Shown here one piece after another: positions 1,349 through 54,363 of a DNA stretch of 64,000 bases. Origin of the DNA: Isurus oxyrinchus (lineage: Eukaryota); NCBI GenBank assembly GCA_026770705.1, contig JANJGN010000052.1, forward strand, positions 744,001 through 808,000. Reading direction: 5' to 3'. Position numbers and translations under genes: made by a program. Under the pieces are notes generated by a model. That model did no database searches. It saw only the letters and a program-made list of their open reading frames with translations, and was not told the DNA's origin. Each line of letters begins with the position of its first letter. Position 1 is the first letter of the stretch.

Positions 1349-1726
1349 TTGGATTGTCACAAGAGTGGAAAGGTGACACTCCACGAGAGGTGACAGCGCA
1401 GAAAGGTTCGTGTGTACAGATTCCATGTCATTACAGTTATCCATCAGATTTGGTAAAGAAACCACATGTCGGAATCTGGAAAATGAGAAGCTACATACGG
1501 AACAAATGGTCTAAATGGTCTACAGCCTTTCACTCCAAGGATCACAGTCACGAGTTACCACGGTTCCGCCATCGGACCCGGCTGTCTGGAGACCTGAAAG
1601 ATGGCGACTGTTCCCTGATTATAAACAACATCAGACGGGAAGATGCAGGACCTTATTTTTTCACGATAAAATTTGGCAATCGTCCGAGCCATAACTATTA
1701 CCCTGTAACCCAGCTTCAGGTTTCTG
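1349..1726 (+). CDS. Siglec/MAG/CD22-like gene A, V-set Ig exon V1 (essential Arg replaced by Thr)
   Basis: ctccccag acceptor, gtaagt donor, 378 nt, phase 1-1, open. Siglec V-set hallmarks GSCVQIPCHYSYP, DGDCSLII and EDAGPYFF(T), with no F-strand Cys. Confidence 0.9.
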
Positions 1727-1984
1727 GTAAGTGCTGTGTTATAATTACTCAACAATTCACATCCAACACTCAATGGGAAATAATAGTGTTTGATTTGCTT
1801 GTTTTTTGGCCATGTTAACCAGCGTCACTATTTTTAATGATTTGTCTATTTCTGCTCCCAGATCCATGAGCTTATTGTGTGTGATTGAATCCACATCATA
1901 GCTGTAATGTAAACCGAGCTGAGGGGTGATGACACCTCCCCCCTGAGTGAAGTGTCTCCTCCCCACTACACCTTCCACCCCTTA

Positions 1985-2900
1985 CACTGTCTGTGTAAAC
2001 CCCCGTCCCATCTCCAGCCTCTCTTTCCTCTCCAAAGTCCTTGAACGTGTTTCCATCTCCCGAATCCGTTCCCATCTTTCCCGGATCTCCATGTTTGAAT
2101 CCCTCCAATCAGGTTCCCACCCCAGCCACTGTGCTGAAACAGCTCCTATCAAGGTCACAAATGGCATCCTGTGTGACTGTGACAAAGGTCAACTTTCCCT
2201 CCTCGTCCTTCTCGATCTGTCTGCAGCCTTTGACACGCTCGACCACACCATCCTCCTCCAACACCTCTCCACTGTCGTCCAGCTGGGTGGGACTGCTCTC
2301 CCCTGGCTCCATTCTTATCCATCTCATCGTAGCCAGAGAATCACTTGCAATGGTTTTGCAGCATCATCTGAACAGTTTTAGTTTTCACCTGTCCACTGAG
2401 GATGCCCAGCTCTACCTCACCACCACCTCTCTCGACTCCTCCACTGCTGCTAAATTATCAGGCTGCTTATCCGACATCCAGTACTGGATGGGCAGAAATT
2501 CCCTCCAATTAAATATTGGAAAGACTGAAGCCATTGTCTTCATTCCCCGCTCCAAACTCTGTTCCCTCGCTACCAACTCCATTCCTCTCCCTGGCAGCTC
2601 TCTGAGATTGAAGCCAATCTGTTCACAGCTTTGTTGTCCCATTTGATCCTGAGATGAGCTTCCGGCCTCATATCTGCGCCCTCACTAACACCGTCTATTT
2701 CCACCTCCGTAACATTGTACGACGTCACCCTGTCTCAGCTCATCTGCTGCTGAAACCCTCATCCACGCCTTCATTACCTCCAGACTCGACTGTTCCAACA
2801 CACGCTCTACACTCCATAAACTTGAGGCCATCCAAAACTGCTGACCACGTCCTTACTCACACCAAGTCCCGAGACTGGTTCCTGGTCAAGCAAAGTCTCA
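1985..2900 (+). mobile_element. L2-clade LINE RT fragment (degenerate)
   Basis: RPISSLSFLSKVLER, QSG..HCAETA.IKVTN, LLDLSAAFDTLDH. Confidence 0.85.
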
Positions 2901-2974
2901 ATGTCACAATTTTTGAATATTTTTCCTCCCTATTACAGTAATCTCCTCCTCTTCCTTCATCCACGGCAACATTC

Positions 2975-4035
2975 CCTATCTCAGGAGTCTCCTCCTGTCC
3001 CTACAACCCTCCCTATCTCAGGAGCCTCCTCCAGTCCCTACAACCCTCCCTATCTCAGGAGTCTCCTCCTGTCCCTACAACCCTCCCTATCTCAGGAGCC
3101 TCTTCCAGTCCCTACAACCCTCCCTATCTCAGGAGCCTCCTCCAGTCCCTACAACCCTCCCTATCTCAGGAGCCTCCTCCAGTCCCTACAACCTTCCCTA
3201 TCTCAGGAGACTCCTCCAGTCTCTACAACCCTCCTATCTCAGTACCTTCTTCCAATCCCGAAAACCATTCCTATCACTGCAAACTCCTCCGGACCCAACA
3301 CCCCTCCCTATCTCTTTAACCTCCTCAAGCCCCGATAACCCTCGCGATATTTGTAGCCTCCTTGAGTCCTAACAACCTCCCCTATCTCTGCAACCTCCTC
3401 CAGACCGAATACCTCTCCCTATCTCTGTAAGCTGCTCCATCTCTTACAACCCTTCATATTTCTGTAACCTCATCCAGCCCACTACAACCCTCCCTATCTC
3501 TGTAACCTCCTCCAGTCCTTAAAAGCTTCCATTATCTCTGTAACCTCCTCCAGCCATTATAACCCTCCCTATCTGTAGCCTCCCTCAGCCCCAGCCACAC
3601 TCCATATCTATGTAACCTCGTCCTGCCCCTACAACCCTCCCTATCTCTGTAACCCCATCCTGCCCCAAAAACTCCCCCATCTCTGTAAACTCCTCCAGTC
3701 CCTGCAACCTTCCCTACCTCTGAAACCTCCACCAGCCTTTCCAACCCTCCCTACCTCTGCAATCCGTCCAGCCCCTACAACTCTTCCTATCCCTGTAAAC
3801 TCCTCCTGCCCCTAAAACCCTCTCTGCTCTTGCAGCCTCCTCCAGTCCCTACACGCTCCCCATCTCCATAAACTCCTCAAGTCCCTACAGCCCTCCCTAT
3901 CTCTGCAACCTCCTCCAGGTCCTACCACCCTCCCTATCTGCGTAACCTCCTCCAGCATCTACAGCCCTCCCTATCTCTGTTACCTCCTCCAGCCCCCACA
4001 AACCTCCCTATCTGTGTAACCTCCTCCAGCCCCTG
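2975..4035 (+). repeat. 37-bp minisatellite (ccctccctatctctgtaacctcctccagcccctacaa); also 6630-7580, 37995-38845, 41460-42080, 56360-56610, 59265-60560
   Basis: Tandem degenerate units visible directly. Confidence 0.92.
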
Positions 4036-4104
4036 ATGGAAGGTGGGTCGAGCGGGTCAGTCACTTGCATGTTTATTCTGCAGCTTTAATATTTTAAGAT
4101 GGTA

Positions 4105-4925
4105 AGAATGTAGGAACATAAGAAATAGGGACAGGAGCAGGCCATTCGGCCCCTCACTGATCTGGTTGTAGCCTTAACTCCATTTTCCTGCCTGTCCCCC
4201 AAACCCTTGACTCCCTTGTCGATCAAAAACCTGCCTCACTCAGCCTTGAGTCTATTCAATGGCCCAGCCTCCACTGCTCTCTGGGGAAGAGAATTCCACA
4301 GGCTAGCGCCCCTCTGAGAGAGGAAATTCCTCCTCATCTCAGTCTTAAATGGGAGAGCACTCATTCCGAAACTGTGCTCCCTGGTTCTAGATTCCCCCAC
4401 GAGGGGGAAACATCCTCCCAGTATCCACCCTGTCAAGCCCCCTCGGAATCGGATATGTTTCAATAAGGTCACCCCTCATTCTTCTAAACTCCAATGGATA
4501 CAGGCCCAACCTGCTCAACATTTACTCACAGGACAAACCCTTTAATCCCAGGAATCAGCCCAGTGAACCTCCTCTGGACTGCGTTCAATGCAACTCTATC
4601 CCTCCATAAGTAAGGAGACCAGAACTGTACACACTGCTCCTGATACAATCTCACCCTGTGCAGCTGTTGCAAGACTTCCCTCCTTTTATACTCCATCCCT
4701 TTGCAATAAAGGCCAACATTCCACTTGCCTTCCTCATTCCGTGGTGTTCCTGAATGCTGACTTTCTGTGATTCATGTACAAGGACACCCAGATCCCTCTG
4801 TACTGCATTCTGCATCCTGTCTCCATTTAAATAATATCCTGTTTTTCTATTCTTCCTGCCAAAATAATTTGTTGCCATTCTCCTCAGTATTGACCATCCC
4901 CCCAATTCAGCCTCATCAGTAAATT
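4105..4925 (-). mobile_element. CR1 LINE 3' fragment
   Basis: QRDLGVLVHESQK, KASGMLAFIA, RRNFLSQR..SLWNSLPQ; CR1-type 3' tail. Confidence 0.85.
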
Positions 4926-4983
4926 TTGAGTCTAGTGGATCCACAAACCATCCAGAGTTAAATATTGATATTTCTCTCCCCAG

Positions 4984-5352
4984 CTGAACCCTCACAAGAG
5001 TGGAAAGGCGACACTCCACGAGAGGTGACAGCGCAGGAAGGTTCGTGTGTACAGATTCCATGTCATTACAGTTATCCATCGTGTCTGGAAAACCAAACGC
5101 GAGGTGGAGTCTGGTTTAATAATGAGAAAGAGATTCCCTGGGCTCCCATTGCCTTTCACTCCAAGGATCACAGTCACGAGTTACCACGGTTCCACCATCG
5201 GACCCGGCTGTCTGGAGACCTGAAAGATGGCGACTGTTCCCTGATTATAAACAACATCAGACAGGAAGATGCAGGACCTTATTTTTTCAGGATAGAATTT
5301 GACAATGGTCCGAGACATAACTATTACCCTGTAACCCAGCTTCACGTTTCTG
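4984..5352 (+). CDS. Siglec-like gene A, V-set exon V2 (Arg intact)
   Basis: AG/GT flanked, 369 nt, phase 1-1; GSCVQIPC...DCSL...DAGPYFFRIEF. Confidence 0.9.
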
Positions 5353-8542: not shown

Positions 8543-8911
8543 ATAAACCCTCACAAGAGTGGAAAGGTGACAGTCCACGAGAGGTGACAGCGCAGGAAGG
8601 TTCGTGTGTACAGATTCCATGTCATTACAGTTATCCATCGTGTCTGGAAAACCAACCGCGAGGTGGAGTCTGGTTTAATAATGAGAAACAGATTCCCTGG
8701 GCTCCCATTGCCTTTCACTCCAAGGATCACAGTCACGAGTTACCACGGTTCCACCATCGGACCCGGCTGTCTGGAGACCTGAAAGATGGCGACTGTTCCC
8801 TGATTATAAACAACATCAGACGGGAAGATGAAGGACCTTATTTTTTCAGAATAGAATTTGACAATGGTCCGAGCCATAACTATTACCCTGTTACCCAGCT
8901 TCACGTTTCTG
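8543..8911 (+). CDS. Siglec-like gene A, V-set exon V3 (Arg intact)
   Basis: AG/GT flanked, 369 nt, phase 1-1; near-identical to V2; DEGPYFFRIEF. Confidence 0.9.
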
Positions 8912-9723
8912 GTAAGTGCTGTGTTATAATTACTCAACAATTCACATCCAACACTCAATGGGAAATAACACAAACTGTGACGTTTACATATTAACACAAA
9001 ACACAGCTTATTATAACACACTGTCTGATTCTCAATAACCTGCTAATAGCTTCCAGTTCAGTCCTAAAACAACCTCTAATACCACTTTAATATCAATGAT
9101 TAAATGTATTGACTGTGTCCATCAATGTTATCAGGTTATCCACTTACATCAATCTCCCTAATCCTGTTTAAAACTTTTACATATCAACAAAAGAAAGATT
9201 TGCATTTCTATAGCACCTTTCACCACCTCTGGACGTCGCAAATGGATTCACAACCATTGAAATAATTCTTGAAATGTAGCCCTTGTTGTAATCTGGGAAA
9301 CACAGCAGCCAATTTGTGCACAGGAAGCTCCCAGAAACAGCAATGTGATCAATAACCTGATCGTCTGCTTTAGATGCCGGTTCAGTGATTGGTTCAAATG
9401 GATTCTCTCCTGCTGGGATCTGGATAGAATTTAAATCTGGCAGATTTCGGAGAAAGTAACAAGCCAGTGTGTCAGGAACTGTGAGCTGATCCCCCACCCT
9501 CACCCGGGATTGTCAATTCAATTGTCTCAAAGTGGAAGTGAATTCATCTGAGTGACAGAAACTCCACTAAGTCTGAAAATAGGAAATTCTCTCCTGATCA
9601 TTGTAATCTCTCAGTTCTGATATCATCCTTGTAAAAGTGCTTTCTCTTGTGGGACTGTGATTTCTATTTGAACTGATGCTTCACGTTATATTTCTCTAAA
9701 AGGATCCATTCTCTGTGTGTTAG

Positions 9724-10020
9724 ATTTCACAGATAAACCCATGATATTCCCTGCTGAAATTATTGCAGGAAAGCGTGTGGATGTAAGCTGCACCTTCAAC
9801 ACAACGTGCAATGGAACAGCAGCACCTGTCTTAACCTGGGACACTCCCACTGACGTACCTGGATCAGTCTCAAACACTGTAACTCAACATGGTGTCACTC
9901 TGACCTATACTTCTGTTCTGACCCTGATCCCATCACTCAAACACCACGGACACACTCTCAGCTGCAGAGTGAGATATCCATCTGTTTCATCGGAGCGGAC
10001 CCTTGTACTAACTGTACAAG
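9724..10020 (+). CDS. Siglec-like gene A, domain-2 C2-set Ig exon
   Basis: ttag acceptor, gtaagt donor, 297 nt. SCTFNTTC carries the extra Cys typical of the Siglec D1-D2 interdomain bond; PVLTW...SVLTLIPS..HHGHTLSCRV. Confidence 0.9.
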
Positions 10021-14383: not shown

Positions 14384-14665
14384 ATGGACCACAGAATCTC
14401 TCAATTACTTCTCTTGATGTGATTAACGCTTCATCGGTCAATATAATTGAGGAGAATTCTGCAGTGATAATCTGCTCTGTCGAGAGCTTCCCAGCTTCTA
14501 ATCTGACGTGGCGACATCTTAATGTCCCAATGAACAGAACAAGATCCAACAATGAGCTGTGGTTGGTGATTCCTCACGTTACATCCAGGGACACTGGAGA
14601 CTATCAGTGTGTGGCAGAGAATGAACATGGAGCAGTGGAGGGGTTCATAACCATCACTGTGGAAT
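14384..14665 (+). CDS. Siglec-like gene A, I/C2-set Ig exon I1
   Basis: tttag...gtgagt, 282 nt, phase 1-1; ICSVESFPASNLTW...DTGDYQCVAENEHG. Confidence 0.88.
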
Positions 14666-15797
14666 GTGAGTTAAAGCAAACTTCAACATCACTCTCACAT
14701 ATTCACACACACACACATACACATACACACATGCATACAAACAAGCATTCATGTGCAATCCCACATGTGCACAGGTGTGCACGCCTGTATGCTCACACAC
14801 AGAAGCATACATACAGAATCACACGTGTGCTTGCTCACACACACACAGACATGTGTGAGTTGTCTGTTCTCCCTGTGCTGCACTGGAGTGTTGCTCCAGA
14901 TTCTGCTCTGAAACACTGACGACATCAGCTGAACAAGACCCTGTATTGGACGAGCAGCCCCCTGCACAGAGAATTGTAGGTTTATCACTCAATACCCCAT
15001 TATTCTAAAGCAATTCCTCCACTGTCAAATCCCTGTGAACATCCTGATGATGTGAAAGACATTTTCTTTTCTTCTAGCCTGACAGTGTCTCCTCTGGTGG
15101 AAGGCTGTAATTACAGCGTGACAGTTTACATATCCACACGCAGCAAGAGCTGAGCAACACTCAGCTTGGGCTGAGAAATGACAAGTAACGTTCACACCAC
15201 ACAAGCACCAGGCAGTGATCATGTCCAACAAGAGAGAATCTAACCATCTCCCCTTGATATTCATTGAATTTACCATCACTGAATCTCCCACGATCAACAT
15301 CCTGGGGGATGTTAACCAAACACCGAACTGGACTGGCCATAAATACTGTGGCTACAGGGGCAGGTCAGAGGCTGGGGAGTCTGTGGGGGGGAATAACTCA
15401 CCACCACCTTCTATAAGACCATAAGACATAGGAGGAGAAATTAGGCCATTCAGCCTATCGAGTCTGCTCCACCATTCAATCATGGTTGATAAGTTTCTCA
15501 ACCCCATTCTCCAGCCTTCTCCCCATAACCTTTGATCCCCTTACCTATCAAGAATCTATCTATCTCGGTCGTAAATACACTTCACCAGGGCAATTAGGGA
15601 TGGGCAATAAATGCTGGCCTAACCAGCGACACCCACTTCCTTTGAATGTACAGATAGAAAAATACATGCAGTGACCATCATTAATGTTGACATAGGAACT
15701 TATAATGGGGAAGATACTTTGGAATGCACATGGACACCAGAAAGAGAGAGACGAAGCATTGAGTCTTCCTCACAATGAAATCTTTATTTGTTTTTAG

Positions 15798-16079
15798 ATA
15801 CACCACGGAATCTCTCAATTACTTCTCTTGATATGATTAACGCTTCATCGATCAATATAATTGAGGGGAATTCTGCAGTGATAAACTGCTCTGTCGAGAG
15901 CTTCCCAGCTTCTAACCTGATGTGGCGACATCTTAATGTCCCAATGAACAGAACAAGTTCCAACAATGAGCTGTGGTTGGTGATTCCTCACGTTACATCC
16001 AGGGACACTGGAGATTATCAGTGTGTGGCAGAGAATGAACAAGGGGCAGTGGAGGGGTTCATAACCATCACTGTGGAAC
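15798..16079 (+). CDS. Siglec-like gene A, I/C2-set exon I2
   Basis: 282 nt, AG/GT flanked, near-identical to I1. Confidence 0.88.
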
Positions 16080-16105
16080 GTGAGTTACTGTAAACTTCAA
16101 CATCA

Positions 16106-16146
<41 letters not shown>

Positions 16147-17049
16147 ATAAACAGGTGCACGCAAACATGCGTTCATATTTAATCCCATGTCTGCACAGGT
16201 GTGCACGCCTGCATGCTCACACACACAAGCATACATACAGAATCACACGTGTGCTTACTCACACACACACAGACATGTGTGAGTTGGCTGTTCTCCCTGT
16301 GCTGCACTGGAGTGTTGCTCCAGATTCTGCTCTGAAACACTGACGACATCAGCTGAACAAGACCCTGTATTGGACGAGCAGTCACCTGCACAGAGAATTG
16401 TAGGTTTATCACTCAATACCCCATTATTCTAAAGCAATTCCTCCACTGTCAAATCCCCGTGAACATCCTGATGATGTGATAGACATTTTCTTTTCTTCTA
16501 GCACAACAGTGTCTCATCTGGTGGAAGGCTGTAATTACAGCGTGACAGTTTACATATCCACATGCAGCAAGAGCTGAGCAACTTTCAGCTTGGGCTGAGA
16601 AATGACAAGTAATGTTCATGCCACACAAGTACCAGGCAGTGAACATCTCCAACAAGAGGCAATCTAACCATCTCACCTTGATATTCAATCACTTTCCCAT
16701 CGCTGAATCCCCTACCATCAACATCCTGGAGGATGTTAACAAAACAACTAACTGGACCGGCCATAATAACTGTGGCTTTAGGAGCAGGTCAGAAGCTGGG
16801 AAATCTGTTGGGGTGAAAAACTCACCACCAGCTTCTCAAGGACAATTAGGGATGGGTAATACATGTTGGCCTAACCAGTGACACCCACTTCCCATGAATG
16901 TCCCTAAAGAAACACACCAGCCGTGACCATTATAGATGTTGACATAGTAACTTATAATGGGTAAGATACCTTGAAATGAAAGCAGATACCAGATAGAGAG
17001 AAATGAAGCGTGGAGCCTTGTTCACAATGAAATCTTTATATGTTTTCAG

Positions 17050-17331
17050 ATGCACCACGGAATCTCTCAATTACTTCTCTTGATATGATTAACACTTCAT
17101 CGATCAATATAATTGAGGGGAATTCTGCAGTGATAATCTGCTCTGTCGAGAGCTTCCCAGCTTCTAACCTGACGTGGCGACATCTTAATGTCCCAATGAA
17201 CAGAACCAGTTCCAACAATGAGCTGTGGTTGGTGATTCCTCACGTGACATCCAGGGACACTGGAGATTATCAGTGTGTGGCAGAGAATGAACATGGAGCA
17301 GTGGAGGGTTTCATAACCATCACTGTGGAAT
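17050..17331 (+). CDS. Siglec-like gene A, I/C2-set exon I3
   Basis: 282 nt, AG/GT flanked, near-identical to I1/I2. Confidence 0.88.
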
Positions 17332-17366
17332 GTGAGTTAAAGCAAACTTCAACATCACTCACATAC

Positions 17367-17403
<37 letters not shown>

Positions 17404-18328
17404 TGCATACAAACAAGCATTCATGTGCAATCCCACATGTGCACAGGTGTGTACGCCTGCATGCTCACACACACAGAAGGAAACATACACAGAATCACAC
17501 GTGTGCTTGCTCACACACACACAGACATGTGTGAGTTGTCTGTTCTCCCTGTGCTGCACTGGAGTGTTGCTCCAGATTCTGCTCTGAAACACTGACAATA
17601 TCAGCTGAACAAGACCCTGTATTGGACGAGCAGTCACCTGCACAGAGAATTGTAGGTTTATCACTCAATACCCCATTATTCTAAAGCAATTCCTCCACTG
17701 TCAAATCCCTGTGAACCTCCTGATGATGTGAAAGACATTTTGTTTTCTTCTAGCCTGACAGTGTCTCCTCTGGTGGAAGGCTGTAATTACAGCGTGACAG
17801 TTTACATATCCACATGCAGCAAGAGCTGAATAACACTCAGCTTGGGCTGAGAAATGAGAATTAATGCATCACAAGCACCAGGCAGTGATCATGTCCAACA
17901 AGAGAGAATCTAACCATCTCCCCTTGATGTTCAGTGAGTTTACTATCACTGAATCCCCCACAATCAACATCCTGGGGGATGTTAACCAAACACCGAACTG
18001 GAAAAAATATATATTATATATTTAATAAATACTGTAGCTACATGAGCCGGTCAGAGGCTGGGAATCCTCTGGAGGTGAAAAACTCACCACCACCTCCTCA
18101 AGGGCAATTAGGGATGGGTAATAAATGCTGGTCTAGATAGATACATCCACTTCCCATGAATATGCAAAAAGGAACACACTGGCAGTGTCTGTTACAAATG
18201 GTGACATAGAAACTTATAATGGAGAAAGAAGCCTTGACATGCACATAGACACCAGATGGAGAGAGATGATACCTGGAGTCTTGCTGTGCACTGTGTTTGC
18301 TCACAATGAAACCTTTATTTGTTTTTAG

Positions 18329-18610
18329 ATGCACCACGGAATCTCTCATTTACTTCTCTTGATTTGATTAACGCTTCATCGATCAATATAATTGAGGAGA
18401 ATTCTGCGGTGATAATCTGCTCTGTCGAGAGCTTCCCAGCTTCTAACCTGACGTGGCGACATCTTAATGTCCCAATGAACAGAACAAGTTCCAACAATGA
18501 GCTGTGGTTGGTGATTCCTCGCGTTACATCCAGGGACACTGGAGACTATCAGTGTGTGGCAGAGAATGAACATGGAGCAGTGCAGGGGTTCACAACCATC
18601 ACTGTGGAAT
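18329..18610 (+). CDS. Siglec-like gene A, I/C2-set exon I4
   Basis: 282 nt, AG/GT flanked, near-identical to I1-I3. Confidence 0.88.
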
Positions 18611-19670: not shown

Positions 19671-20279
19671 CACCTCTGTTATATGTGAATCCTCCTTATA
19701 GAAACCTGCATGTACATGGATATTATCAATAAATATTACATAGATAAATGTTATTTGTATAGACCTTTCATGCATAGACAATATCACTTCACAAGTTCAG
19801 AATTACTACATGTACATAGGGAACCATTCTCAAACTGTACCGGAGTCATTCATTGGCTGATTTTACAGGGCGAGATTCCAATGAATGGAAAGCAGGATTG
19901 CTTGGAGCTGGAATCTGTTTGAGTGTTGGACTGAGTGGATTCTTCATCTTCAAGTGTGTGAGAAAGTAAGTGTGAAGGTTTAATTGGTTGTTTTTGAACA
20001 TGTTTTCTCCAACCTTCTCTCCGTATAGAAAGAACTTGCATTTCTATAGCACCTTTCACAACCCAAAACCCTCCACAACCCCTGAAGAGCTTTGATGTTC
20101 ACTCACTGTTTAACATCTCATCCAACACTCAATGTTTCACAACTCAGTCCTGTAACTGGCAGTGTTGACCTGGACCATAAAATACCTTGTGACTTCCTGA
20201 GGATGTGAAAGGGGATATATAAATGAAGACATTTCTTTTGTTAGTGAATGCAATCTCTTTCCATTTTCACTGTTTAATA

Positions 20280-20430: not shown

Positions 20431-20744
20431 TCGTCCTCTTACACAATGTTCAGTCTCACACATTTTAAACGAGCGCTGAGCAACATCTGCTCCTTCAGAA
20501 GATCCACCTCAACACCTGGAGTGAGCAGTGAATTGAAACTCGCTCAACGACTGCTCAGCTTTACACAGGAATCACGTCACAGAGTCAGGACACAAAGGGT
20601 TAACAGTTTGCTTACAACACAACACTAAGGCCCTAAGTTTCAGTGAAAGGGTTTTCACAATTGTTCCCCAATTCCTGATTTGACTCACAGAGACACATCA
20701 ACCCTTTCTCATTAAATACACAGAGGGAGCAGCACAGGAAGAGG

Positions 20745-21890
20745 TCATTCAGCCCCCTCGAGCCTGTTACACAGGAACAGGAGGAGGCACATTCAGCCCC
20801 CTCGAGCCTGTTACACAGGAACAGGAGGAGGCCCATTCAGCCCCCTCGAGCCTGTTACACAGGAACAGGAGGAGGCCCATTCAGCCCCCTCGAGCTTGTT
20901 ACACAGGAACAGGTGGAGGTCCAATCAGCCCCCTCGAGCTTGTTACACAGGAACAGGAGGAGGCCCATTCAGCCCCCTCGAGCTTGTTACACAGGAACAG
21001 GAGGAGGCCCATTCAGCCCCCTCGAGCTTGTTACACAGCAAGAGGAGGAGGTCCATTCAGCTACTCAAGCCTATTACACAGGAACAGGATTAGGACAATA
21101 CAGCCCCTCGAGCCTGTTACACAGGAACAGGAGGAGGCCTATTCAGCCACTCAAGCCTGTTACATGAGGACAGGAGAAAGCCCATCAGCCTCTTGAGCCT
21201 ATTATACAGGAACAGGAAAAGGACATTCAGTCCCTCAACACCCTTCCACAGGAACAGGAGAGACTCTCAGCCTCTCGAGCCTGTTACCCAGGAACAGGAA
21301 GAGCACATTCAGTCTCTCAACCCACTTACACAGGAATAGGAAACCCATTCAGTCACTCGTGACTGTTACACAGGAACAGGAGGAGGCCCATTCAGGCCCC
21401 TCGAGCCTGTTACACAGGAACAGGAGGAGGTCCATTCTGTCCCCTTGAGCCTGTTACACAGGTACAGGAGACCCATTCAGCCTCCACAAGCTTGTTACAC
21501 AGGAACATTAGGGGCTCCATTCAGCCCCATCAAGCCTGTTACACAGGAACAGGAGGAGGCCATTCAGCCCCTCGAGCCTGTTACACAGGAACAGGAGGAG
21601 GCCCATTCAGCCACTCAAGCCTGTTACACAGGAACAGGTGGAGGCCCATTCAGACCCTCTAACCTGTAACACAGGAACACAAGGAGATCCATTCAGCCCC
21701 TCGAGCCTGTTACACAGGAACAGGAGGAGGCCTATTCGGACACTCGAGCCTGTTACACAAGGACAGGGGGAGGGCATTCAGCACCTGGAGCCTGTTACAC
21801 AGGAACAGGAGGAGGTCCATTCAGCTACTCACACCTGTTACACAGGAACAGGAAGAGGCCCAGTCAACCCCTCGAGCTTGTTGCATGTGA
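20745..21890 (+). repeat. 42-44-bp minisatellite (cagccccctcgagcctgttacacaggaacaggaggaggcccatt); also 42465-42745, 55745-56106
   Basis: About 25 tandem units. Confidence 0.92.
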
Positions 21891-22537
21891 ACAGTCGATG
21901 GCCCTTCAACCACATTCTTGGCACGCAAAGGGCTAACAGTTTTCTAACAGTGCGAGGCAAAGAGCTGCTTTCACACTTGGTACCAAGCACTTCCAATTTT
22001 GTCTCACAGAGACACATCCACCCTTTCTAATTAAACACAAATAGGGAGCAGCACAGGAAGAGGTCATTCAGCCCAAGCAGAGCGTGTGGGCAGTTCCTCC
22101 CCAGGCGAGCAGTCGGACAGGTCCTGGGTAAGTAACGGAACGACTGGAATTCACTTCCACCACCAACACCGTCCTTTGTTGATGTTGTGACTTTATAAAG
22201 ACAGATTCCAATGATTGATGCCTTTGAAAGATTTCTACTGATTATTGAGATCTGGGTGTGAGGCTCAAGTCTGTTGTACAGAACATCTTTCTAGCTCAAG
22301 GGATGAGGGAACTGCAGAGACATGAGCTTTGGGGTGTCCTGAGGTGGTGAAAGGTGCTATAGAAATGCAAATCCTTCATTATTTGTCTTACTTAAAGACT
22401 TGTAACTCTCTGCAGAACACCTATCATCCCACAGAGAATGAAATTAGTCTGTGAAGGCATTGTCTAAAAGCAGTTCTGATCTCTCGAGAGCTGTCGGACA
22501 AGAGGTGAGGTCTCATTAACTCCTTTCTCTTTCACAG

Positions 22538-22616
22538 CTTGAGAGTGAGAAGTGGATGGAATATCTGGGAGTAGACGATGGTCGGGAAATCTACTTCCTC
22601 CTGTCACTTCTCCAAG
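22538..22616 (+). pseudogene. Gene B leader (signal peptide) exon, probably frameshifted
   Basis: ttcacag acceptor; ends IYFLLSLLQ-g|gtaata, the same LLQ|G ending as the gene C leader. ATG 22578 (MVGK) is 1 nt out of frame with the hydrophobic core; upstream ATG 22556 is in frame but acidic. Confidence 0.65.
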
Positions 22617-23306
22617 GTAATATCATCATCAGCTCGAACAGATTTATGTTTAACAGTCTTTGTAAAAGATCATTCTTATCTCTTTATCTCTGTAACCTCC
22701 TGCAACTCACCCAAACAACTTCCCAGATCTCTGTGTTACTCCAATTCCGGCCTCTTGACCATCCCCCGATTCCCATCACTCCAATACTGGCGGCCGGGCC
22801 TTCAGCTGCCTGGGGCCTGAGCTCTGGAATTCACTCCCTAAACCTCGGGGATGGAGGAGATGAGAGGGTTTCATTTTACTGACAATCACCACGACAACAT
22901 CACAGCTGCAGTCAGAATAGACAGAGAGTCCAGCCCTCACACTTCCTGCACAGTTTCACCATAGCAACCACAATAAAGAAGTAAAATAACTGAAAGTTAA
23001 ACCGAAGCCAAACCAGTCGGTGTAGAGAGATGAGATGTTTACACAGTTTCCCTGTGTATCTTGTAGACACTGTGTTGGGTGGAAGACTGGCTTCACTAAA
23101 CATGGTCCTGAGGACCATGAGCCAATGTAGAATGAACTTGTCCACTCCTGTGACCAGGATTCTCTTCCATCCATTGTGAAACCTTGGGGAGTTCCTTGTG
23201 AGTCCTGTAGATGGTCCACACAGCAGCCACTGTGCCCCAGTGATGGAGGGAGTGGATATCAAGTCTAGTGGATTGACAAACCATCCAGAGTTAAATATTG
23301 ACATTT

Positions 23307-23338
23307 CTATTACCCTGTAACCCGGCTTCATGTTTCTG
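23307..23338 (+). pseudogene. Gene B V-set exon remnant (acceptor and most of exon deleted)
   Basis: Intron homologous to 1135-1340 joins directly to the last ~32 nt of a V exon (ctattaccctgtaacc...tctg|gtaagt). Downstream intron matches that of V3. Confidence 0.9.
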
Positions 23339-23810
23339 GTAAGTGCTGCGTTATAATTACTCAACAATTCACATTCAACACTCAATGGGAAATAACACTA
23401 ACTGTGACGTTTACATATTAACACAAAACACAGCTTAATATAACACACTGTCTGATTCTCAATAACCTGGTGATAGCTTCCAGTTCAGTCCTAAAGCAAC
23501 CTCTAATACTCACTTTAATATCAATGATGAAAAGCATTAACTGTATTATCAGGTTATCCACTCCCATCAATCTCTCCTGTCCTGTTTAAAAGTCTCACGT
23601 ATCGATAAAAGAAAGATGTGCATTTCTGCAGCGCAATTTACCACCTCAGGAGGATCCAAATCCCTTCACAGCCAATGACATTATTCCTGAATTGTAGTCA
23701 CAGATGTTAAACACAGCAGGCAGTTTGTGCACAGCAAGATCCAACAAACCACAAGGTGATAAATCACCCAGATCACTGAGGAAATGAGAGGCCAGTGAAC
23801 TCAAACCTCT

Positions 23811-23945
23811 GGTCTGATGAAGAGTCATACGGACTCGAAACGTTAACCCTGTCTTCCTCTCCACTGATACTGTCAGACCTGCTGAGCCTTTCCAGCAATT
23901 TTTGTTTTTGTTTCAGATTTCCAGCATCTGCAGTATTCTGCTTTT
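23811..23945 (+). ncRNA. Minimal type-I hammerhead ribozyme motif in a Penelope-like repeat
   Basis: ggt-CTGATGA-a-GAGTC-atacg-GACTC-GAAA-cgtt-aacc (core, stem II hairpin, palindromic aacgtt stem III), then a tail also seen at 28590, 45000 (-) and 53400. Confidence 0.7.
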
Positions 23946-24197
23946 AACTCCAATCTCTGGTCTGAGCCTCTTCTCTCATCCAGTGTTCTCAATTCACATG
24001 TCTCGGAGTGAACGTGTATTAAGCTGAGAGACAGAAACACTACTGCCAAAGAGCAAGAAAATCTTTCCTGATCATTGTAACCTCTCAGTTCTGATATCAT
24101 CCTTGTAAAAGTGCTTTCTCTTGTGGGACTGTGGTTTCTATTTGAACTGATGCTTCACGTTATATTTCTCTAAAAGGATCCATTCTCTGTCTGTTAG

Positions 24198-24494
24198 ATT
24201 TCACAGATAAACCCACGATATTCCCTGCTGAAATTATTGCAGGAAAGCGTATGGATGTAAGCTGCACCTTCAACACAAAGTGCAATGGAACAGCAGCACC
24301 TGTCTTAACCTGGGACACTCCCACTGACGTCCCTGGATCAGTCTCAAACACTGTAACTCAGCATGGTGTCACTCTGACCTATACTTCTGTTCTGACCCTG
24401 ATCCCATCACTCAAACACCACGGACACACTCTCAGCTGCAGAGTGAGATATCCATCTGTTTCATCGGAGCGGACCCTCGTACTAACTGTGCAAG
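24198..24494 (+). CDS. Gene B C2-set exon (intact paralog of 9724-10020)
   Basis: 297 nt, AG/GT flanked, open, only a few residues differ from the gene A C2 exon. Confidence 0.8.
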
Positions 24495-24817
24495 GTAAGT
24501 ACATACACCTTTCATTCTACATCAGCACTCCCTCAGCGCTGACCCTCTGACAGTGCAGCCCGTTCTCAGTATCCACATTCTCAGACCTCTCTAAGTGCTT
24601 CACAGTCGATAGAAGTTAATTGATCTTTATATGATTATTGCTGAATGAAGAGACAAGCTGTCTAAACTTTACATCTCGCACACACCATTCTCCATGGCAA
24701 CACCTCCTCCTATCAGAGACCACTTGCCAACCAATCAGCACTCTCTTCCCATTAAGTATAAATTGTTGTTCACTTTCTGTTGGTAATCCTGTGAACGGGC
24801 TTCTTGATTCCTGCCCT

Positions 24818-24970
24818 GACATCTTAATGTCCCAATGAACAGAACAACTTCCAACAATGAGCTGTGGTTGGTGATTCCTCACATTACATCCAGGGACACT
24901 GGAGACTATCAGTGTGTGGCAGAGAATGAACATGGAGCAGTGGAGGGATTCATAACCATCACTGTGGAAC
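24818..24970 (+). pseudogene. Gene B 5'-truncated I/C2-set exon
   Basis: 3' half only (HLNVPMNRT...TITVE|gtgagt); 5' half and acceptor replaced by unrelated sequence. Confidence 0.88.
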
Positions 24971-26648
24971 GTGAGTGTACACAGACTTCAACATCTCTCT
25001 CAGATTCGAACACGACACAAACAACCTCAAACATACACATCTAAGTAGACACATGCAGACACACATATATGACCACACAGAAAGACACACTCACACACAA
25101 ACACACTAACACACACTCCCCTGTGGGCTACCTGACCTCCCTCAGTACTGCCCTGGAGAGTTGGCCTGAATTCTGGGATTTGTGTTCCCATTCATATTTA
25201 TGCAAGAATATGGAAATTACAAAGTCTATTACAGACAGTCAGATGCATAGAGACACTCACAGATACTCTCTGCCTCTCCAACTCTCTCTCTCCCTTTAAG
25301 AAGCTTCCTGAAAGCTCACCCTTCGAACAATCACCGGTCCCAAATCCTCCTTATCTGATTTGTGTGATTTTCTTTGTGTATTTGAGAGTAAGAGAGAGGT
25401 GGAGAGGTTTAGGAGGAGAATTCCTGTTGGTGAAAAGCTTACATCATGTTCTCACCTTTCCAGTGCCCATATTTCACATGATGTCCAATGTCCTTGTTCA
25501 TAATGGGAATTGCCTATGTAAACATCACGCTGTAGTTACAGTCTCCTACCAGTGGTGGCATTGTAGCACTTAATCCTTGTGTTTCCCAGCTTTTCAAGCA
25601 ACTCCACTTCCCAGTTTGCTCCACAAGCTGTGAGTTCATTGGAATTCAATTATTTCTCAAACGGTAGATTTGATGTCATTTTATTGAAAACTTCCTCAGT
25701 GCCTCCCTGAAGGGTTTACACTCTCTGGGAAGCAGGAATAGGCTGGATGTTGGGGAGTTCATCTTTTCCCAGAGAGTAGGGATCCTCGGGAATGTGCTGT
25801 CAGTGGGTGTGGTGGTTGCTGATTCTCTGTCGCCTTCAAGAGGGATCTGGAGTCGTTACTGACTGGGGGAGAGATCATGGAAACGGAGAATGATACAGCA
25901 CAGGAGGAGGCCATTCAGCCCATTGAGACTGTGCCAGGTCTTTCAATGTGCTATCCAATCAGATCCACTAACCACCACTCCACTTTGCCCCCATCTTCCT
26001 CCTTTAAGTATTTATCCAATTTCCCTTTTGAAAGTTCCTATTGAATCTGCTTCCACCGCCCTTTCAGGCAGCACCTTCCAGATCACAACAACTCGCTCTG
26101 TCAAAACAAATTCTCCTCATCTCCCCCTCCGGTTCGTCAATCTGTGTCCCTCTGGTTACCGAGCCTCCTGCCCCTTAAGTACATTGATACTGTTCACCTC
26201 AACCACTCCCTGTGGGAGCGAGTTCCACATTCTCCCCTCTCTCTGGGTAAAGATTGGAACTGTTTATTAAGCGGGGGGTGTAAGTCCTTGGGGGAGTCCA
26301 TCTCGATCCTGCCCGATTCGCACACGCGTTCGAGATGGATTTCCACCCTGCACAAAACGTTTCCAGAATTTTCTACAGCACAATCCTGTACACAGCGATT
26401 GGGAGAAACATTGGACAGGGAGTCCAACAGCACAATGATCCATTCTCACCAATGTTCCACGCTAAGGGGAAAGTTCCGATTGTCCACTCTTAGAGTGTTT
26501 ACAATGAAAACATTCATTCCACATTGAATCCCAGTGGATGGGTCAATATTACAGCAAATGTTGCAGTGATATGAAGCTTGATTGTTCAGCCAGAGTAAGA
26601 GATTGAAAGCGGAGAGTCAGTGATGATTTCTTTCTGTGTGTTCTCTAG

Positions 26649-26788
26649 ACAGTGGAGGAGAGATTCTGCACGTGATCCTGATCCTGGGAATACGAGCTGT
26701 GATATTCCTTGTGGCTGTGGTTATCACTATCGCTGGAGTCTGTGTCTGGGAGAGACAAACAGTGAAAGGAAGTCGACAGACTGTTTGA
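26649..26788 (+). CDS. TM + short cytoplasmic terminal exon with intramembrane Arg (activating-type receptor)
   Basis: ttctctag acceptor, phase 1; SGGEILHVILILGIRAVIFLVAVVITIAGVCVWERQTVKGSRQTV*. Arg codon 26693-26695; no Tyr motif in tail. Confidence 0.85.
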
Positions 26789-42999: not shown

Positions 43000-44125
43000 A
43001 CTCATTCCGAGATACACTCTCATATTCCCCCAGCAACTCAGCAACTCCTCCAGTGAAACATTTCAGAGCAGCTGAGCTTGGTTTTCTGGAACCAGTCTCG
43101 GCCCAGAAGACTAGGGCCGTCACCTGTCGCTATGATCACTGGAAGCTGGGCTGTCTGCTGCCTGTAGGACACAGGTACTGGGATGAGGTCCTTTCCCTGT
43201 ATGGATTCTCCAGCGTGTGTCTTCAGCTGATCCATTGTTGGCTCTAAATTCAGCGTCTGGGTTCCTTCATTTAGCTGTTTAAATGTGGGCTCTTCCACCA
43301 CTGTGTCTGAGGCTCCCGTATCTGCCCCATTACTAGTGGCTGCCCATTCACTTGGGTTGTGATGGTTATAGGTTCAGTTTTTACCACTGTGACATTGGAC
43401 AGGGAATAGACATCGGTATCAGCAGCTTCAGGCTCTGTGATATTATTCACTTCCATCATGTTGGTGCACTGCCTGATGGGCTGTCTCGATTTCACCCTGC
43501 ATTGCTTTATTACCCACCCCTTTCTTGTGGCAGTGATGGCATTCTGCCCCCTTGAACCTGCAGGTGTCCGGTACGAGCTCACTCCCCCCCACATCGAGAA
43601 CAGGCCAACTTCGGAGTTGCTGCTGAAATACTCCCACGAAGCCTTTTAGTTTCTGGAGCGGCAGAGACTGTCTCTCGCTTGGCGGCTGTCTCTCTCTCTC
43701 TCCCTCTCTCTCTCTCCAGTTTGAGCCTCACGCCCGGTGGTTGGTTCCTGTCCCAGCTGAGGACTGGCGCCATGTTGTACATCCTGTAAATCCCGCCAGT
43801 CTCTCCCAGCACTTTCCATGCCTGGCGCTATTTCCATGGTGCGCTTCAAATCGATGTCGGCTTCTGCGAGTAAACGGCTCTGAATGGCGTTGGGGTGAAC
43901 GACACAAACCAATCGGCCCCGCAACATGTCATTGAGTGTGTCTCCGAGGTCCCAGTGCTCAGTCACCTGCTTCCACTTCACTGTATAGGTTGCGATGGAC
44001 TCTCCCGGGGCCCTTACTCTGGAGTTAAACTTAAACCTCTGCATTATTACCCACGGCTTCAGCTGAAAATACATCTTCATGAGGACGACTAATTGGTGAA
44101 AAGATTTAGAATTGGGTGTAATACC
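43000..44125 (-). mobile_element. Gypsy gag-protease fragment (left arm)
   Basis: KSFHQLV.LMK.YF.LKP.VI.QRFKFN.R, MLRGRLVC..AIQSRLLAE, CCHC knuckles, DTGAS. Confidence 0.85.
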
Positions 44126-44407
44126 CGTCACTGTCTTCAGCTCTGAGATTGTCAATCCCCACCGAACAATTCTTCCCTTCCAAGTCGCCGATTATTTTAG
44201 CACGTCCCACGAATGTGGCCACCCCATAATTGGGATCTTTGGTGTATGTGATGGTATATTTCCATCTATACCAATATTTATACCAAGCTCCGTGCAGTGC
44301 TGTGTAAGAGTGGGAAGGAAAGTCAAAGCTACACGGAATAACCACACAAGAGCTGCTGATGGCCCTCCGAGGCAGCGCCTTCATAGACCATCCCTCTGAC
44401 GTCACTC
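44120..44407 (-). pseudogene. Gene C (left copy) V-set exon truncated in strand F
   Basis: GVTSEGWSM...SSCVVIPCSFDFP...LHGAWY...GRAKIIGDL..KNCSVGIDNLRAEDSD, then runs into Gypsy gag and a stop. Confidence 0.85.
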
Positions 44408-45272: not shown

Positions 45273-47064
45273 CTTCAGTTCCTCATCTAAATGGAAAATG
45301 ATAAAGACAGAGACTTTTTCAGAAATTGTCCCCAGTGTTTCTTCCTCAAACAACAACAACTTGTGTTTAAATGGCACCTTTCAGGGAATTAAACAGCCCC
45401 AGGGAATTATCTAATGTCAAGACAAAGAAGGAGAGATTGAGAAGGGACATCGCAAACCGATTCACCAAACACGGCAAAAATTCATTGTTCCCTCACTCCC
45501 TGTTCTGGGTGTCCAGCTTTTTCTCTCAGTGAGTTTAGTCCTCACAATCTCTATCTATCGCACTCTTCTGCTCTATCTCTCTCTCTCACACACACATTCT
45601 CTCTCTAACACTCACAATCTGTCTCTATCACACTCTTCTGCTCTATCTCTCGTTCACTCACACACACACATTCTCTCTCTAACACTCACAATCTCTCTCT
45701 ATCACACTCTTCTGCTCTATCTCTCTCTCTCACACACAGACACGTTCTCTCTCTAACACTCACAATGTCTCTCTATCGCACTCTTCTGCTCTATCTCTCT
45801 CTCTCTCTCACACACACATTCTCGCTCTTATACTCACAAAATTTTTCTCTATCACACTCTTCTGCTCTATCTCTCTCTCACACACACACACATTCTCTCT
45901 AACAATCACAATCCCTCTCTATCGCACTCTGCTTTCTCCCTCTCTCTCTCTCTCACACACACATTCTCTCTGTCAGCACTCACAATCTCTCTCTATAGCA
46001 CTCTTCTGCTCTATCTCTCTCTCTCTCTCACACACACACATTCTCTCTCTAACACTCACAATCTCTCTCTATCACACTCTTCTGCTCTATCTATCTCTCT
46101 CTCTCACACACACATTCTCTCTCTCAGACACACACATTCTTTCTCTCTCAAACATTTAACATTTATCTTCATCTCGCTCTTCTGCTGTCTCCCTCTTTCT
46201 CTCCCTCGCACACACACACACTCTCTGTCACAAACACACGCTCTCTCCCACACACTCTCTCTCACACACTCTCACATGCACACTCTCTCCCTCATATACA
46301 TATACTCTCTGTATCTGATGTCTGAATGCATTTCCAGGTAACTTCCCTCAGGATAACGTCTTATGCCACATTTTTAATGGACACTGCCTATGTAAACTGT
46401 CACACTGCAGTTGCATTCTCCCACCAGTAGAGGTGTTGTCCATCTAGAATGAAAGAAGCTTGCTTTCACATCCTCAGGATTTCGCAAAGGGCTGGACAGG
46501 CAATGAATTGTATTTGATTGATGGAGCACTGAGGGGTAAATCTACAATTCTCTGTTCAGGAGGTTGCTCATCCAATTCAGGGTCTTGTTGATCTGGAGTT
46601 TACCTTCTTTCAACACAGAATCGGAGCTGATACCAAGACTCCAGTGCGGCACTGAGAGAGGAGAGGGAACTCACGTGTCTGTATGTTTGTGTTTGTGTTT
46701 CTGCAGATGTGAGTGTGTTTGTGTGGGTATGCACACATGTGTCTGTGTGTGCGCATGCGCATGTGTCTGTGTGTCTAGGTCTGTCCATGAGTGAGAGTAT
46801 GTGCATGTGTGTGTCTATGTGTGGGCATGAATGTGTGTGTGTGTTTGAGATGGGTGTGTATTTTCCTGTGTATATGCTTGTATGTGTATGACTGTGTGTG
46901 GATAATTATGCATGTGTGNNNNNNNNNNNNNNNNNNNNNNNNNNNNNNNNNNNNNNNNNNNNNNNNNNNNNNNNNNNNNNNNNNNNNNNNNNNNNNNNNN
47001 NNNNNNNNNNNNNNNNNNNNNNNNNNNNNNNNNNNNNNNNNNNNNNNNNNNNNNNNTAACTCAC

Positions 47065-47345
47065 GTTCCACAGTGATGGTTATGAACCCCTCCACTGCTC
47101 CATGTTCATTCTCTGCCACACACTGATAGTCTCCAGTGTCCCTGGATGTAACGTGAGGAAACACCAACCACAGCTCATTGTTGGAACTTGTTCTGTTCAT
47201 TGGGACATTAAGATGTCGCCACGTCAGGTTAGAAGCTGGGAAGCTCTCGACAGAGCAGATTATCACTGCAGAATTCCCCTCAATTATATTGATCGATGAA
47301 GCGTTAATCATATCAAGAGAATTAATTGAGAGATTCTGGGTGCGT
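47065..47345 (-). pseudogene. Orphan I/C2-set exon with 1-bp deletion
   Basis: 281 nt versus 282 in paralogs; cca>cc near the acceptor gives an early TGA. Confidence 0.85.
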
Positions 47346-48109
47346 CTAAAAGAAATAAAGATTTTAATGTGAGCAAGCATAGTGCACAGCAAGACTCCAT
47401 GCATCATCTCTCTGTATCTGATGTTGGAATGCTTTTCCAGGTACCTTCCCTCATGAAAAATTACTGTCATATTTATAATGGACACTTCCTATGTAAACTG
47501 TCACACTGCAGTTGCTTCCTCCCACCAGTAGAGTTGCTAACCCTCTAGAATGAAAGAGACATCCTTTAACACTCTCAAGATGTCCCCAAGGGCTTGATAG
47601 GCAATGAATTGGATTTGATCGATGGAGCACTGAGGGCTAAATCTACATTTCTCTGTTCAGGAGGTTGCTCATCCAATTCAGGGTCTTGCTGATCTGGAGT
47701 TTACCTTCCTTCAGCACAGAATGGGAGCTGATACCATGACTCCAGTGCAGAACTGAGAGAGGAGAGGGAGCTCATACTTGTGTGTGTACTTCTGCACGTG
47801 AGTTTGTATTTGTGTGTATGCGCGTGTCTGTNNNNNNNNNNNNNNNNNNNNNNNNNNNNNNNNNNNNNNNNNNNNNNNNNNNNNNNNNNNNNNNNNNNNN
47901 NNNNNNNNNNNNNNNNNNNNNNNNNNNNNNNNNNNNNNNNNNNNNNNNNNNNNNNNNNNNNNTATGTGTGAGTTGAGTTTGTGTGTGTTTCTGTGTATGT
48001 GTTTGAACGTATGTTTGTGTGTAAGCGTGCATGTTTGTGTCTACACATGAGTGTTTTTGCATGTGTGAGTGTGTGTGTGTGAGTGATGTTGAAGTCTGTG
48101 TACACTCAC

Positions 48110-48391
48110 ATTCCACAGTGATGGTGATGAATCCCTCCACTGCTCCATGTTCATTCTCTGCCACACACTGATAGTCTCCAGTGTCCCTGGATGTAACGTG
48201 AGGAATCACCAACCACAGCTCATTGTTGCAACTTGTTCTGTTCATTGGGACATTAAGATGTCGCCACGTCAGGTTAGAAGCTGGGAAGCTCTCGACAGAG
48301 CAGATTATCACTGCAGAATTCCCCTCAATTATATTGATCGATGAAGCATTAATCATTTCAAGAGAAGTAAATGTGAGATTCTGTGGAGCAT
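48110..48391 (-). pseudogene. Orphan I/C2-set exon (frame intact, extra Cys in RTSCNN)
   Basis: 282 nt, AG/GT flanked; no upstream V/C2 or downstream TM exon seen on this strand. Confidence 0.75.
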
Positions 48392-49094
48392 CTAAGAACA
48401 AATTAAGTGTTTAATGTGAGCAAGCAGCGTGCACAGCAAGACTCCATGCATCATCTCTCTGTATCTGATGTCTGTATGCATTTCCAGATACCTTCCCTCC
48501 ATAAAACTTCCACTGTCAAATTTATAATGGGCACTGCCTATGTAAACAGTCAAACTACAGTTACATTCTCCCACCAGTAGAGGTGCTGTTCACCTAGAAT
48601 GAAAGAAACTTTCACATCCTCAGGATTTTGCCAAGGGATTTACGGGAATGAATTGTATTTGATCGATGGAGCACTGAGGGGTAAATCTACAATTCTCTGT
48701 TCAGGAGGTTGCTCATCCAGTTCAGGGTCTTTTTGATCTGGAGTTTATCTTCCTTCAACACAGAATCGGAGCTGACACCGAGACTCCAGTGCAGACCTGA
48801 GAGAGAAGAGGGACCTCACGCGTGTTTATGTGTATGTGTTTGTGTTTCTACATATGTGAGTATGTTTGTGTGAGTATGCATGCATGTGTCTGTGTGTGCA
48901 TGTGTGTATGTGTTTGCGCAAATGTGCGTGTGTCTTTGTGTATATTTCTGTGCATAAGTGAATGTGTGTACATGTGTATGTGTATGTGTGTGCACGTGTG
49001 AGTGTGTGTGTGTGAGTTGAGTGTGTGTATGTTTCTGTGTAGGTTTTTGCACGTGTATGACTGTGTGTAAATGTGCATGTATGTGCCTACACAT

Positions 49095-54075: not shown

Positions 54076-54363
54076 GAGTGACGTCAGAGGGATGGTCTAT
54101 GAAGGCGCTGCCTCGGAGGGCCATCAGCAGCTCTTGTGTGGTTATTCCGTGTAGCTTTGACTTTCCTTCCCACTCTTACACAGCACTGCACGGAGCTTGG
54201 TATAAATATTGGTATAGATGGAAATATACCACCACATACACCAAAGATCCCAATTATGGGGTGGCCACATTCGTGGGACGTGCTAAAATAATCGGCGACT
54301 TGGAAGGGAAGAATTGTTTGGTGAGGATTGACAGTCTCAGAGCTGAAGACAGTGACGGGTATT
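54076..54363 (+). pseudogene. Gene C (right copy) V-set exon truncated in strand F
   Basis: ctttcag acceptor, phase 1; same Gypsy junction as left copy. Confidence 0.85.

Follow-up and report, generated by a model that had tools for sequence, protein, structure and literature searches.

An arginine-less outer V-set domain shared by a multi-copy clade of shark Siglec-like receptors

We observed that the outermost V-set domain (V1) of a Siglec-like gene in Isurus oxyrinchus has lost the Arg of the sialic-acid site and that it belongs to a multi-copy clade of first-domain exons carried on paired receptor types, a membership that goes beyond what a preliminary description of this DNA had claimed. 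Direct reading of the genome established the sequence changes and exon order, as well as the clade with its first-domain flanks and its distribution over anchor types. We favor, with a probability of about 0.5, the reading that V1 is a re-purposed outer domain that would engage an anionic, non-canonical ligand through a Lys/Arg/Trp surface, standing atop domains that keep the Arg.

Results

The window, the 64,000-nt stretch of DNA analysed here, opens inside a Siglec-like gene on the + strand that contains three tandem V-set exons. The exon map gave the order leader-V1-V2-V3-C2-4xC-TM, with the leader exon and its ATG 3083 nt upstream of the window start. V1 (1349..1726, + strand, 378 nt) encodes the outermost Siglec V-set domain, whereas V2 (4984..5352, +, 369 nt) and V3 (8543..8911, +, 369 nt) are internal V exons that are 97% identical to each other and carry a BC-loop Cys at 5082-5084 and 8641-8643, respectively. 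All three are open, AG/GT-flanked and phase 1-1. Over its first 1150 nt the V1-V2 intron (1727..4983, +) has 97.9% identity with the beginning of the V2-V3 intron, and this likeness marks what is, by alignment, a tandem duplication unit of ~3.6 kb. Downstream lie a Siglec second-domain-type exon (9724..10020, +), whose C-x5-C BC-loop Cys aligns with the MAG and CD33 pair, four open constant-type Ig exons (14384..18610, +; coding stretches 14386-14664, 15800-16078, 17052-17330 and 18331-18609) and an uncharged transmembrane exon of type A (19869..19965, +). The second-domain exon has two AG acceptors 9 nt apart (window 9721-9733), the upstream of which (+3 residues) is used in contigs of runs X1, X2, X11 and X12, whose RNA status was guessed.

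The gene has the Siglec architecture of an N-terminal Siglec-type V-set domain, constant-type Ig domains and one membrane span. Its V exons matched the Pfam families V-set and Ig_CD22, the closest solved structures by sequence were Siglec-5, Siglec-7, MAG, CD33 and sialoadhesin, and the nearest proteins came from Cetorhinus (82%) and Carcharodon (77%). Siglec-12-type database names on such relatives are automatic labels and do not by themselves indicate orthology to SIGLEC12 or the CD33 cluster. We rejected the possibility that V1 is a pseudogene, since every mapped exon is open.

V1 has a Thr codon (ACG, 1663..1665, +; Thr105) at the position of the sialic-acid Arg, which is AGG in V2 (5289-5291) and AGA in V3 (8848-8850). 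The preliminary description had pointed to this substitution, and alignment to structure chains confirmed it: the site aligns with the Arg of Siglec-5, Siglec-7, sialoadhesin and MAG and lies within predicted strand F, residues 100-108. The conserved F-strand Arg is present in V2 and V3 and absent from V1, and on its sequence we class V1 as a Siglec-like domain and not as a canonical sialic-acid lectin.

The replacement of the BC loop / C strand / CC' loop block (1447..1524, +) described earlier was also evident. In V1 this block is basic and Trp-rich, with 26 aa as compared to 23 in V2 (+3) and a net charge of +6 against -1; over the whole domain the charges are +9 (pI 9.7) and -4 (pI 6.0). 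V1 and V2 differ at 40 of 357 columns (a gap run counted as one), and 30 of these differences fall within one 70-nt window, a clustering reached in 0 of 20000 shuffles (maximum 20), so divergence along the exon is not uniform. Identity is 92.8% over 1360-1456, 45.8% over 1457-1524, 98.6% over 1525-1662 and 86.8% over 1663-1700; the segments were cut at 1457 and the protein block starts at 1447, hence the first value takes in a few loop changes. The near-identical framework that had been proposed (93-99% identity here) thus flanks a loop block of ~46%. The claimed difference in the F-G region held as well, with five changes in 1663-1700, all non-synonymous; those accompanying the Arg loss (1669..1700, +) include Lys for Glu two residues on, Gly for Asp and Arg for Gly. 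The first three V1 codons also differ from V2. Near-identical flanks were found on the downstream side (97.9% over 1095 intron columns), whereas upstream the likeness extends over just the last 60 nt (91.7%), beyond which the intron is a different one (47%).

An AlphaFold2 model of V1 had a mean pLDDT of 90.1 and its best fold matches were sialoadhesin and MAG Ig1, which indicates that V1 is modelled as a Siglec V domain fold. Its CC' region contains a WxxW motif (1507..1518, +) within a 9-nt repeat unit whose copy number varies among paralogs. This motif is present in 43 of 50 intact Arg-less exons vs 0 of 95 intact internal exons. The available part of one MAG study describes WxxW as a C-mannosylation motif (PMC5150538), and by analogy the V1 motif is a possible C-mannosylation site.

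We next compared V1 with its relatives. The first V domain of a Cetorhinus protein has a loop of equal length, with 17 of 26 loop residues identical to V1, and keeps the Arg; basic loops of this kind were found in nine cases among Cetorhinus and Carcharodon proteins, the site being occupied by Arg or Lys. Since this loop type is found in basking and white sharks together with Arg, loop remodelling and Arg loss appear to be separate events, and the alignments place the basic Trp-rich loop before the loss. The suggestion that the V1/V2 loop difference reflects recent CDR-like remodelling tied to the loss of Arg is therefore not supported, and neither is a coupling of the two changes, as the isurid genome itself has Arg-keeping exons with nearly the same loop. 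The look-alike at G000:C52:228147, for instance, keeps the Arg and differs from V1 by 24 nucleotides. V1-type loops change length in 9-nt steps via a Trp-x-x repeat. We also noted four Arg-keeping first V exons (L114, L106, L117 and L135; 387-396 nt) with CC' loops lengthened by Trp-Asn-Thr repeats.

Gene conversion, which had been invoked for the loop, was upheld as exchange among paralogs, with the framework rather than the loop as its probable target. The V1 framework matches V2 at 28/29 and 59/67 residues and the Cetorhinus first V at 23/29 and 53/67; being nearer to V2, it was most likely homogenised by conversion that spared the loop. Recent conversion of the loop from a foreign donor was rejected, as the loop is common to several species. 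Within the clade, a short-loop group of five exons has the same Thr-bearing 3' half, with four differences in the last 200 nt, which points to segment exchange. A PHI-like permutation test gave p 0.004, with 202 of 406 site pairs incompatible, a result inflated by homoplasy in that 12 of the 29 sites lie in CpG context. Clade variants imported from Arg exons were mostly not seen among the 142 examined of at least 573 Arg exons; six motifs present in 20-40 clade members were carried by 0 sampled Arg exons.

A genome census by exact pattern identified 54 V exons with Thr or Met at the site and 573 with Arg, a family of at least 627 V exons; reversed-pattern controls gave 0 matches. Because the patterns were tight, the counts are minimum values; some of the exons counted are probably alleles or haplotigs. 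We then read all 54 Thr/Met exons and a sample of the Arg exons (C52 below ~2.0 Mb, plus the neighbours of the 54); 201 exons were found, four were dropped as cut, and the 197 read include 142 Arg exons. The Thr/Met exons are spread over 11 contigs, and a sequencing error or one-off mutation at the Thr codon was rejected on that account. All 54 have a first-domain upstream intron and an Arg-bearing V next downstream, a class assignment that rests mostly on intron sequence (about 700 nt of upstream sequence was fetched for most Arg-less exons, and 21 of the 91 first exons had a visible leader). Open reading frames with AG/GT flanks were found in 50 of 54 Thr/Met and 126 of 142 Arg exons. The 54 exons represent 39 distinct DNA sequences, and with their flanks they merge to 45, 34, 24 and 14 loci at 99.8, 99.5, 99.0 and 98.5% identity; the copies are probably in part alleles or uncollapsed haplotypes.

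We found the loss in outer domains only. In the stretch of C52 below 2.01 Mb, for which both lists were retrieved, all 47 internal exons have Arg, whereas 10 of the 46 first exons have another residue (eight Thr, one Met, one Gly). The Lys two residues past the site is found in 54/54 Arg-less exons vs 3/137 parsed Arg exons. Mean net charge is +7.3 in Arg-less exons (n=50), +2.9 in Arg-keeping first exons with basic loops (n=7) and -3.5 in internal exons (n=95). When the Arg codon was masked for tree building, the 35 distinct intact Arg-less exons grouped in a 38-row set (SH-aLRT 100) that includes three Arg-keeping first exons; this tree requires two changes and allows a single origin of the Arg loss. 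Neither Thr nor Met was seen at the site in 151 V domains taken from 128 annotated shark and ray proteins of other species (138 Arg, 12 Lys, one Ser), suggesting that the Arg-to-Thr/Met change may be lineage-specific. The 12 Lys domains come from rays, carpet sharks and white shark (P0010, P0015, P0024, P0025, P0032, P0075, P0084, P0027 and P0105). Some genes stack internal V exons in runs of six and four with 2.3-kb spacing, at G000:C52:1875533-1887042 (L137, L138) and C52:602693-609601 (L110).

These counts also bear on an alternative explanation, in which V1 is retired and serves as a spacer or cap, V2 and V3 do the binding, and the clade has spread by segmental duplication and drift under selection for fold alone. 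Redundancy is large, with 573 Arg exons in the genome and an Arg-bearing V behind every Arg-less one, and 24 of the 54 clade members have other residues in place of the G-strand aromatics. The Arg was likewise lost in human Siglec-XII and great-ape Siglec-5/14, according to the accessible portion of PMC6288428. Against retirement stand the fixation of the following Lys, a charge that rises one way, and the restriction of Arg loss to the outer position.

To this we added an analysis of variation among 31 distinct intact 378-nt clade members by a counting method. Amino-acid variants number 13 per 157 sites in the framework vs 39 per 133 in the loops (p 5e-6), and silent variants are similar (6 per 50 and 5 per 35). 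The framework lies below intron density (p 0.001), supporting constraint that would maintain the fold, and the loops lie above it (p 0.004). The variants lack independence, and we settled on the C'-C'' region only once the sequences were known; the loops set a priori (BC-CC' and F-G) still exceed intron density, at 28 per 98 vs 177 per 970 (p 0.02), which again argues against retirement. The ratio piN/piS is 0.9 in the framework, 1.3 in BC-CC', 1.8 in C'-C'' and 8.0 in F-G. In favor of retirement, the loops' excess of non-synonymous over silent variants falls short of significance (p 0.08); loop diversity is matched by 7-20% of intron windows of equal size. Positive or diversifying selection on the ligand face is suggested by these counts at most.

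The anchors provide a further argument. Among the 54 clade genes, 30 have a type B anchor, 10 type A and 13 an activating-type anchor with a short tail (nine with a membrane Arg, four with Gln), and one runs off its contig. The 40 uncharged anchors are followed by tyrosine tails in 32 cases, and seven were read insufficiently far; the tails include ITIM/ITSM-like motifs. V1 exons one residue from that of the window sit on Arg-anchor genes at G000:C52:313752 and G000:C71:1820205, and near-identical ligand domains are found on charged-anchor and tyrosine-tail members, as in paired receptors. Judged from anchor charge and motifs, these would be activating and inhibitory types, and the presence of the same V1 on both speaks against a retired domain. 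Taken with the evidence above, we regard retirement as doubtful, though a serious contender, and retain re-purposing as our preferred reading.

The window copy is without ~2.76 kb holding the tyrosine-motif tail exons; its twin at G000:C546, 99.9-100% identical, has them. The window copy consequently shows no ITIM/ITSM tail of the kind typical of CD33-related inhibitory Siglecs, which its twin retains in its tail exons. The junction (20734..20755, +), located by comparison with the twin, lies inside a tandem repeat, so that a deletion and an assembly collapse are both possible. In four short-loop Arg-less genes (L033, L052/L159, L071/L178 and L085/L191), Gln replaces the membrane Arg of the activating-type anchor.

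Several neighbouring pieces were recorded. A broken gene at 22045-26785 has a frameshifted leader (~22538-22617), a V exon almost wholly deleted (junction near 23307), a second domain that looks intact (24185-24511) and an anchor of the activating type with Arg (26648-26785). An exon-like piece at 22045-22128, with counterparts ~500 nt upstream of every leader in L031-L040, is similar to the initial cytoplasmic exon of type A genes in another reading frame; such sharing could drive crossovers that swap or delete tails. A distant Siglec-like V domain, ~31% identical to a sialoadhesin-like shark protein, occurs in two opposite copies (44118-44363, - strand; 54120-54365, + strand) that are part of an inverted duplication, and orphan constant-type Ig exons lie at 46575-48794 (-) with no V exon nearby.

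V1 contains Cys21, Cys26 and Cys87. The set follows the Siglec pattern of an intra-sheet pair and an inter-domain Cys with a partner in the next domain: Cys21 (1411..1413, +) is the Siglec inter-domain Cys, and we predict that it pairs with Cys33 of V2. In the isurid genome a Cys occupies residue 33 in 99 of 101 internal vs 2 of 91 first exons, and it does so in 34 of 45 internal vs 1 of 72 first domains of other sharks and rays. Cys33 sits seven residues past the B-strand Cys; in the second domains of the window gene, MAG and CD33, a Cys sits six residues past it. The available parts of two papers report that the MAG second-domain Cys bonds the V domain (C37-C165; PMC5150538) and that the equivalent CD33 residue is C169 (PMC7426717). 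Given this position and the placement of Cys33, each internal V is predicted, by analogy, to be disulfide-stapled to the domain above. A predicted fold of the white-shark V-V-C2 protein P0014 (pLDDT 74, pTM 0.56) has three Ig domains; the disulfide is predicted from position. On this pattern, Asp33 in V1 against Cys33 in V2 reflects domain position and not ligand choice, and part of the V1/V2 loop difference is positional.

The same features weigh on the idea that splicing picks V1, V2 or V3 singly, with V1 as an Arg-less isoform. The three exons have similar splice sites and the same phase (1-1), so exon skipping is possible. Internal exons, however, have the additional Cys and in many cases begin with linker-like codons; V domains occur in series in annotated proteins from other sharks and rays; and contigs of X1 and X2 connect V with V, leader with V, and V with C2. 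Together these make single-exon choice very improbable. We searched runs X1, X2, X19 and X5 at 88% and X1, X7, X11 and X12 (one sample) at 96%; their RNA status was guessed, and neither their source species nor the gene of origin of the joined contigs is established. One X1 contig spans 1417-1540 with two differences, and no contig at 96% spans 1665-1674; the Thr form was accordingly not seen, a result that counts neither for nor against its expression.

Discussion

The reading that we favor, re-purposing of V1 atop Arg-keeping domains, would unfold in four steps. An ancient first-domain loop rich in Trp, Arg and Lys would predate the split from basking and white sharks, and an old internal-domain Cys would pair with Cys21 of the domain above, as in the second domains of MAG and CD33. 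Later, and probably a single time, a change of one base (AGG to ACG) would have turned Arg into Thr, then ACG into ATG, accompanied by Lys for Glu on that face of the strand. Unequal crossover and conversion would then have amplified the clade, kept its frameworks alike and shifted V1 between signalling types, similar to Siglec-5/14. The ligand would be held by Lys, Arg and Trp of the CC' and F-G face, while V2 and V3 likely keep the classic sialic-acid site or act as spacers. We infer that the ligand may be an anionic membrane surface or a sulfated or acidic polymer, probably microbial. Charge alone does not name a ligand, and binding by V1 is read here from its sequence. A precedent is the Arg-independent membrane binding of Siglec-6 through Lys and Trp, as far as the available text of PMC12953582 describes it. 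Many Arg-keeping human Siglecs also bind sulfated glycosaminoglycans on arrays (PMC13331776, from the accessible part), so such binding by V1 would in itself not be special.

Alternatively, the sialoside site could have been rewired, such that V1 binds sialylated or sulfo-sialylated glycans or gangliosides via Lys107, Arg111 and the Lys/Arg/Trp of CC'. MAG R118A lost ganglioside-liposome binding, according to the available portion of PMC5150538, and Arg111 is limited to 23 of the 54 clade members; we consider a rewired site improbable. A bolder extension of re-purposing, which we offer as an unlikely speculation, is a two-signal Siglec: the Arg-less outer domain would read microbial or stressed anionic membranes, the inner, disulfide-stacked domains would read self sialic acid, and the outer module would be shuffled over dozens of activating and inhibitory receptors as a germline-diversified repertoire.

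Siglecs without the Arg are usually read as single decaying genes. The shark clade is multi-copy, mostly intact and paired, with loss in the outer domain only. In addition, Arg-keeping and Arg-less versions of nearly the same loop within one genome constitute a natural series for ligand-class switching. Primate Siglecs provide separate examples of Arg loss, tandem V domains, conversion and pairing; our open-literature searches on shark and elasmobranch Siglecs turned up no report of all four together in a multi-copy shark clade. A very large shark Siglec-like family and a V-on-V architecture were likewise not found in print in the open literature, and supplementary gene-family tables for the whale shark may bear on family size.

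Compared to known systems, MAG (Siglec-4) and the V-C2 part of CD33 share with the shark gene the fold, the intra-sheet cysteines, the inter-domain Cys pair and a site formed by CC' and the F and G strands. They have one V, however, and their Cys partner is a constant-type domain, whereas the predicted shark partner is another V. Siglec-6 resembles V1 in that its binding outlasts loss of the Arg, with Lys and Trp on lipid (PMC12953582, in part), a likeness drawn for V1 from sequence; in contrast, Siglec-6 keeps its Arg and its Lys and Trp are Lys126/Trp127, and the V1 Lys/Trp cluster lies in the CC' region. Siglec-5/14 and Siglec-11/16 similarly place near-identical ligand domains, maintained by gene conversion, on inhibitory and activating anchors, and great-ape Siglec-5/14 are also without the Arg, as set out in the available sections of PMC6288428 and PMC13358205. 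Those are pairs of single-V genes, whereas the shark has dozens of multi-V genes on three anchor types. Siglec-XII (primate Siglec-12) has two serial V-sets, the N-terminal of which lost its Arg in humans (R122C; accessible part of PMC6288428), but it is one gene, interpreted as being on its way to retirement, for which null alleles are common. The shark clade differs from it in being multi-copy, with 50 of 54 copies open, in its added basic changes, in the Arg-keeping V behind each copy and in its position-specific Cys.
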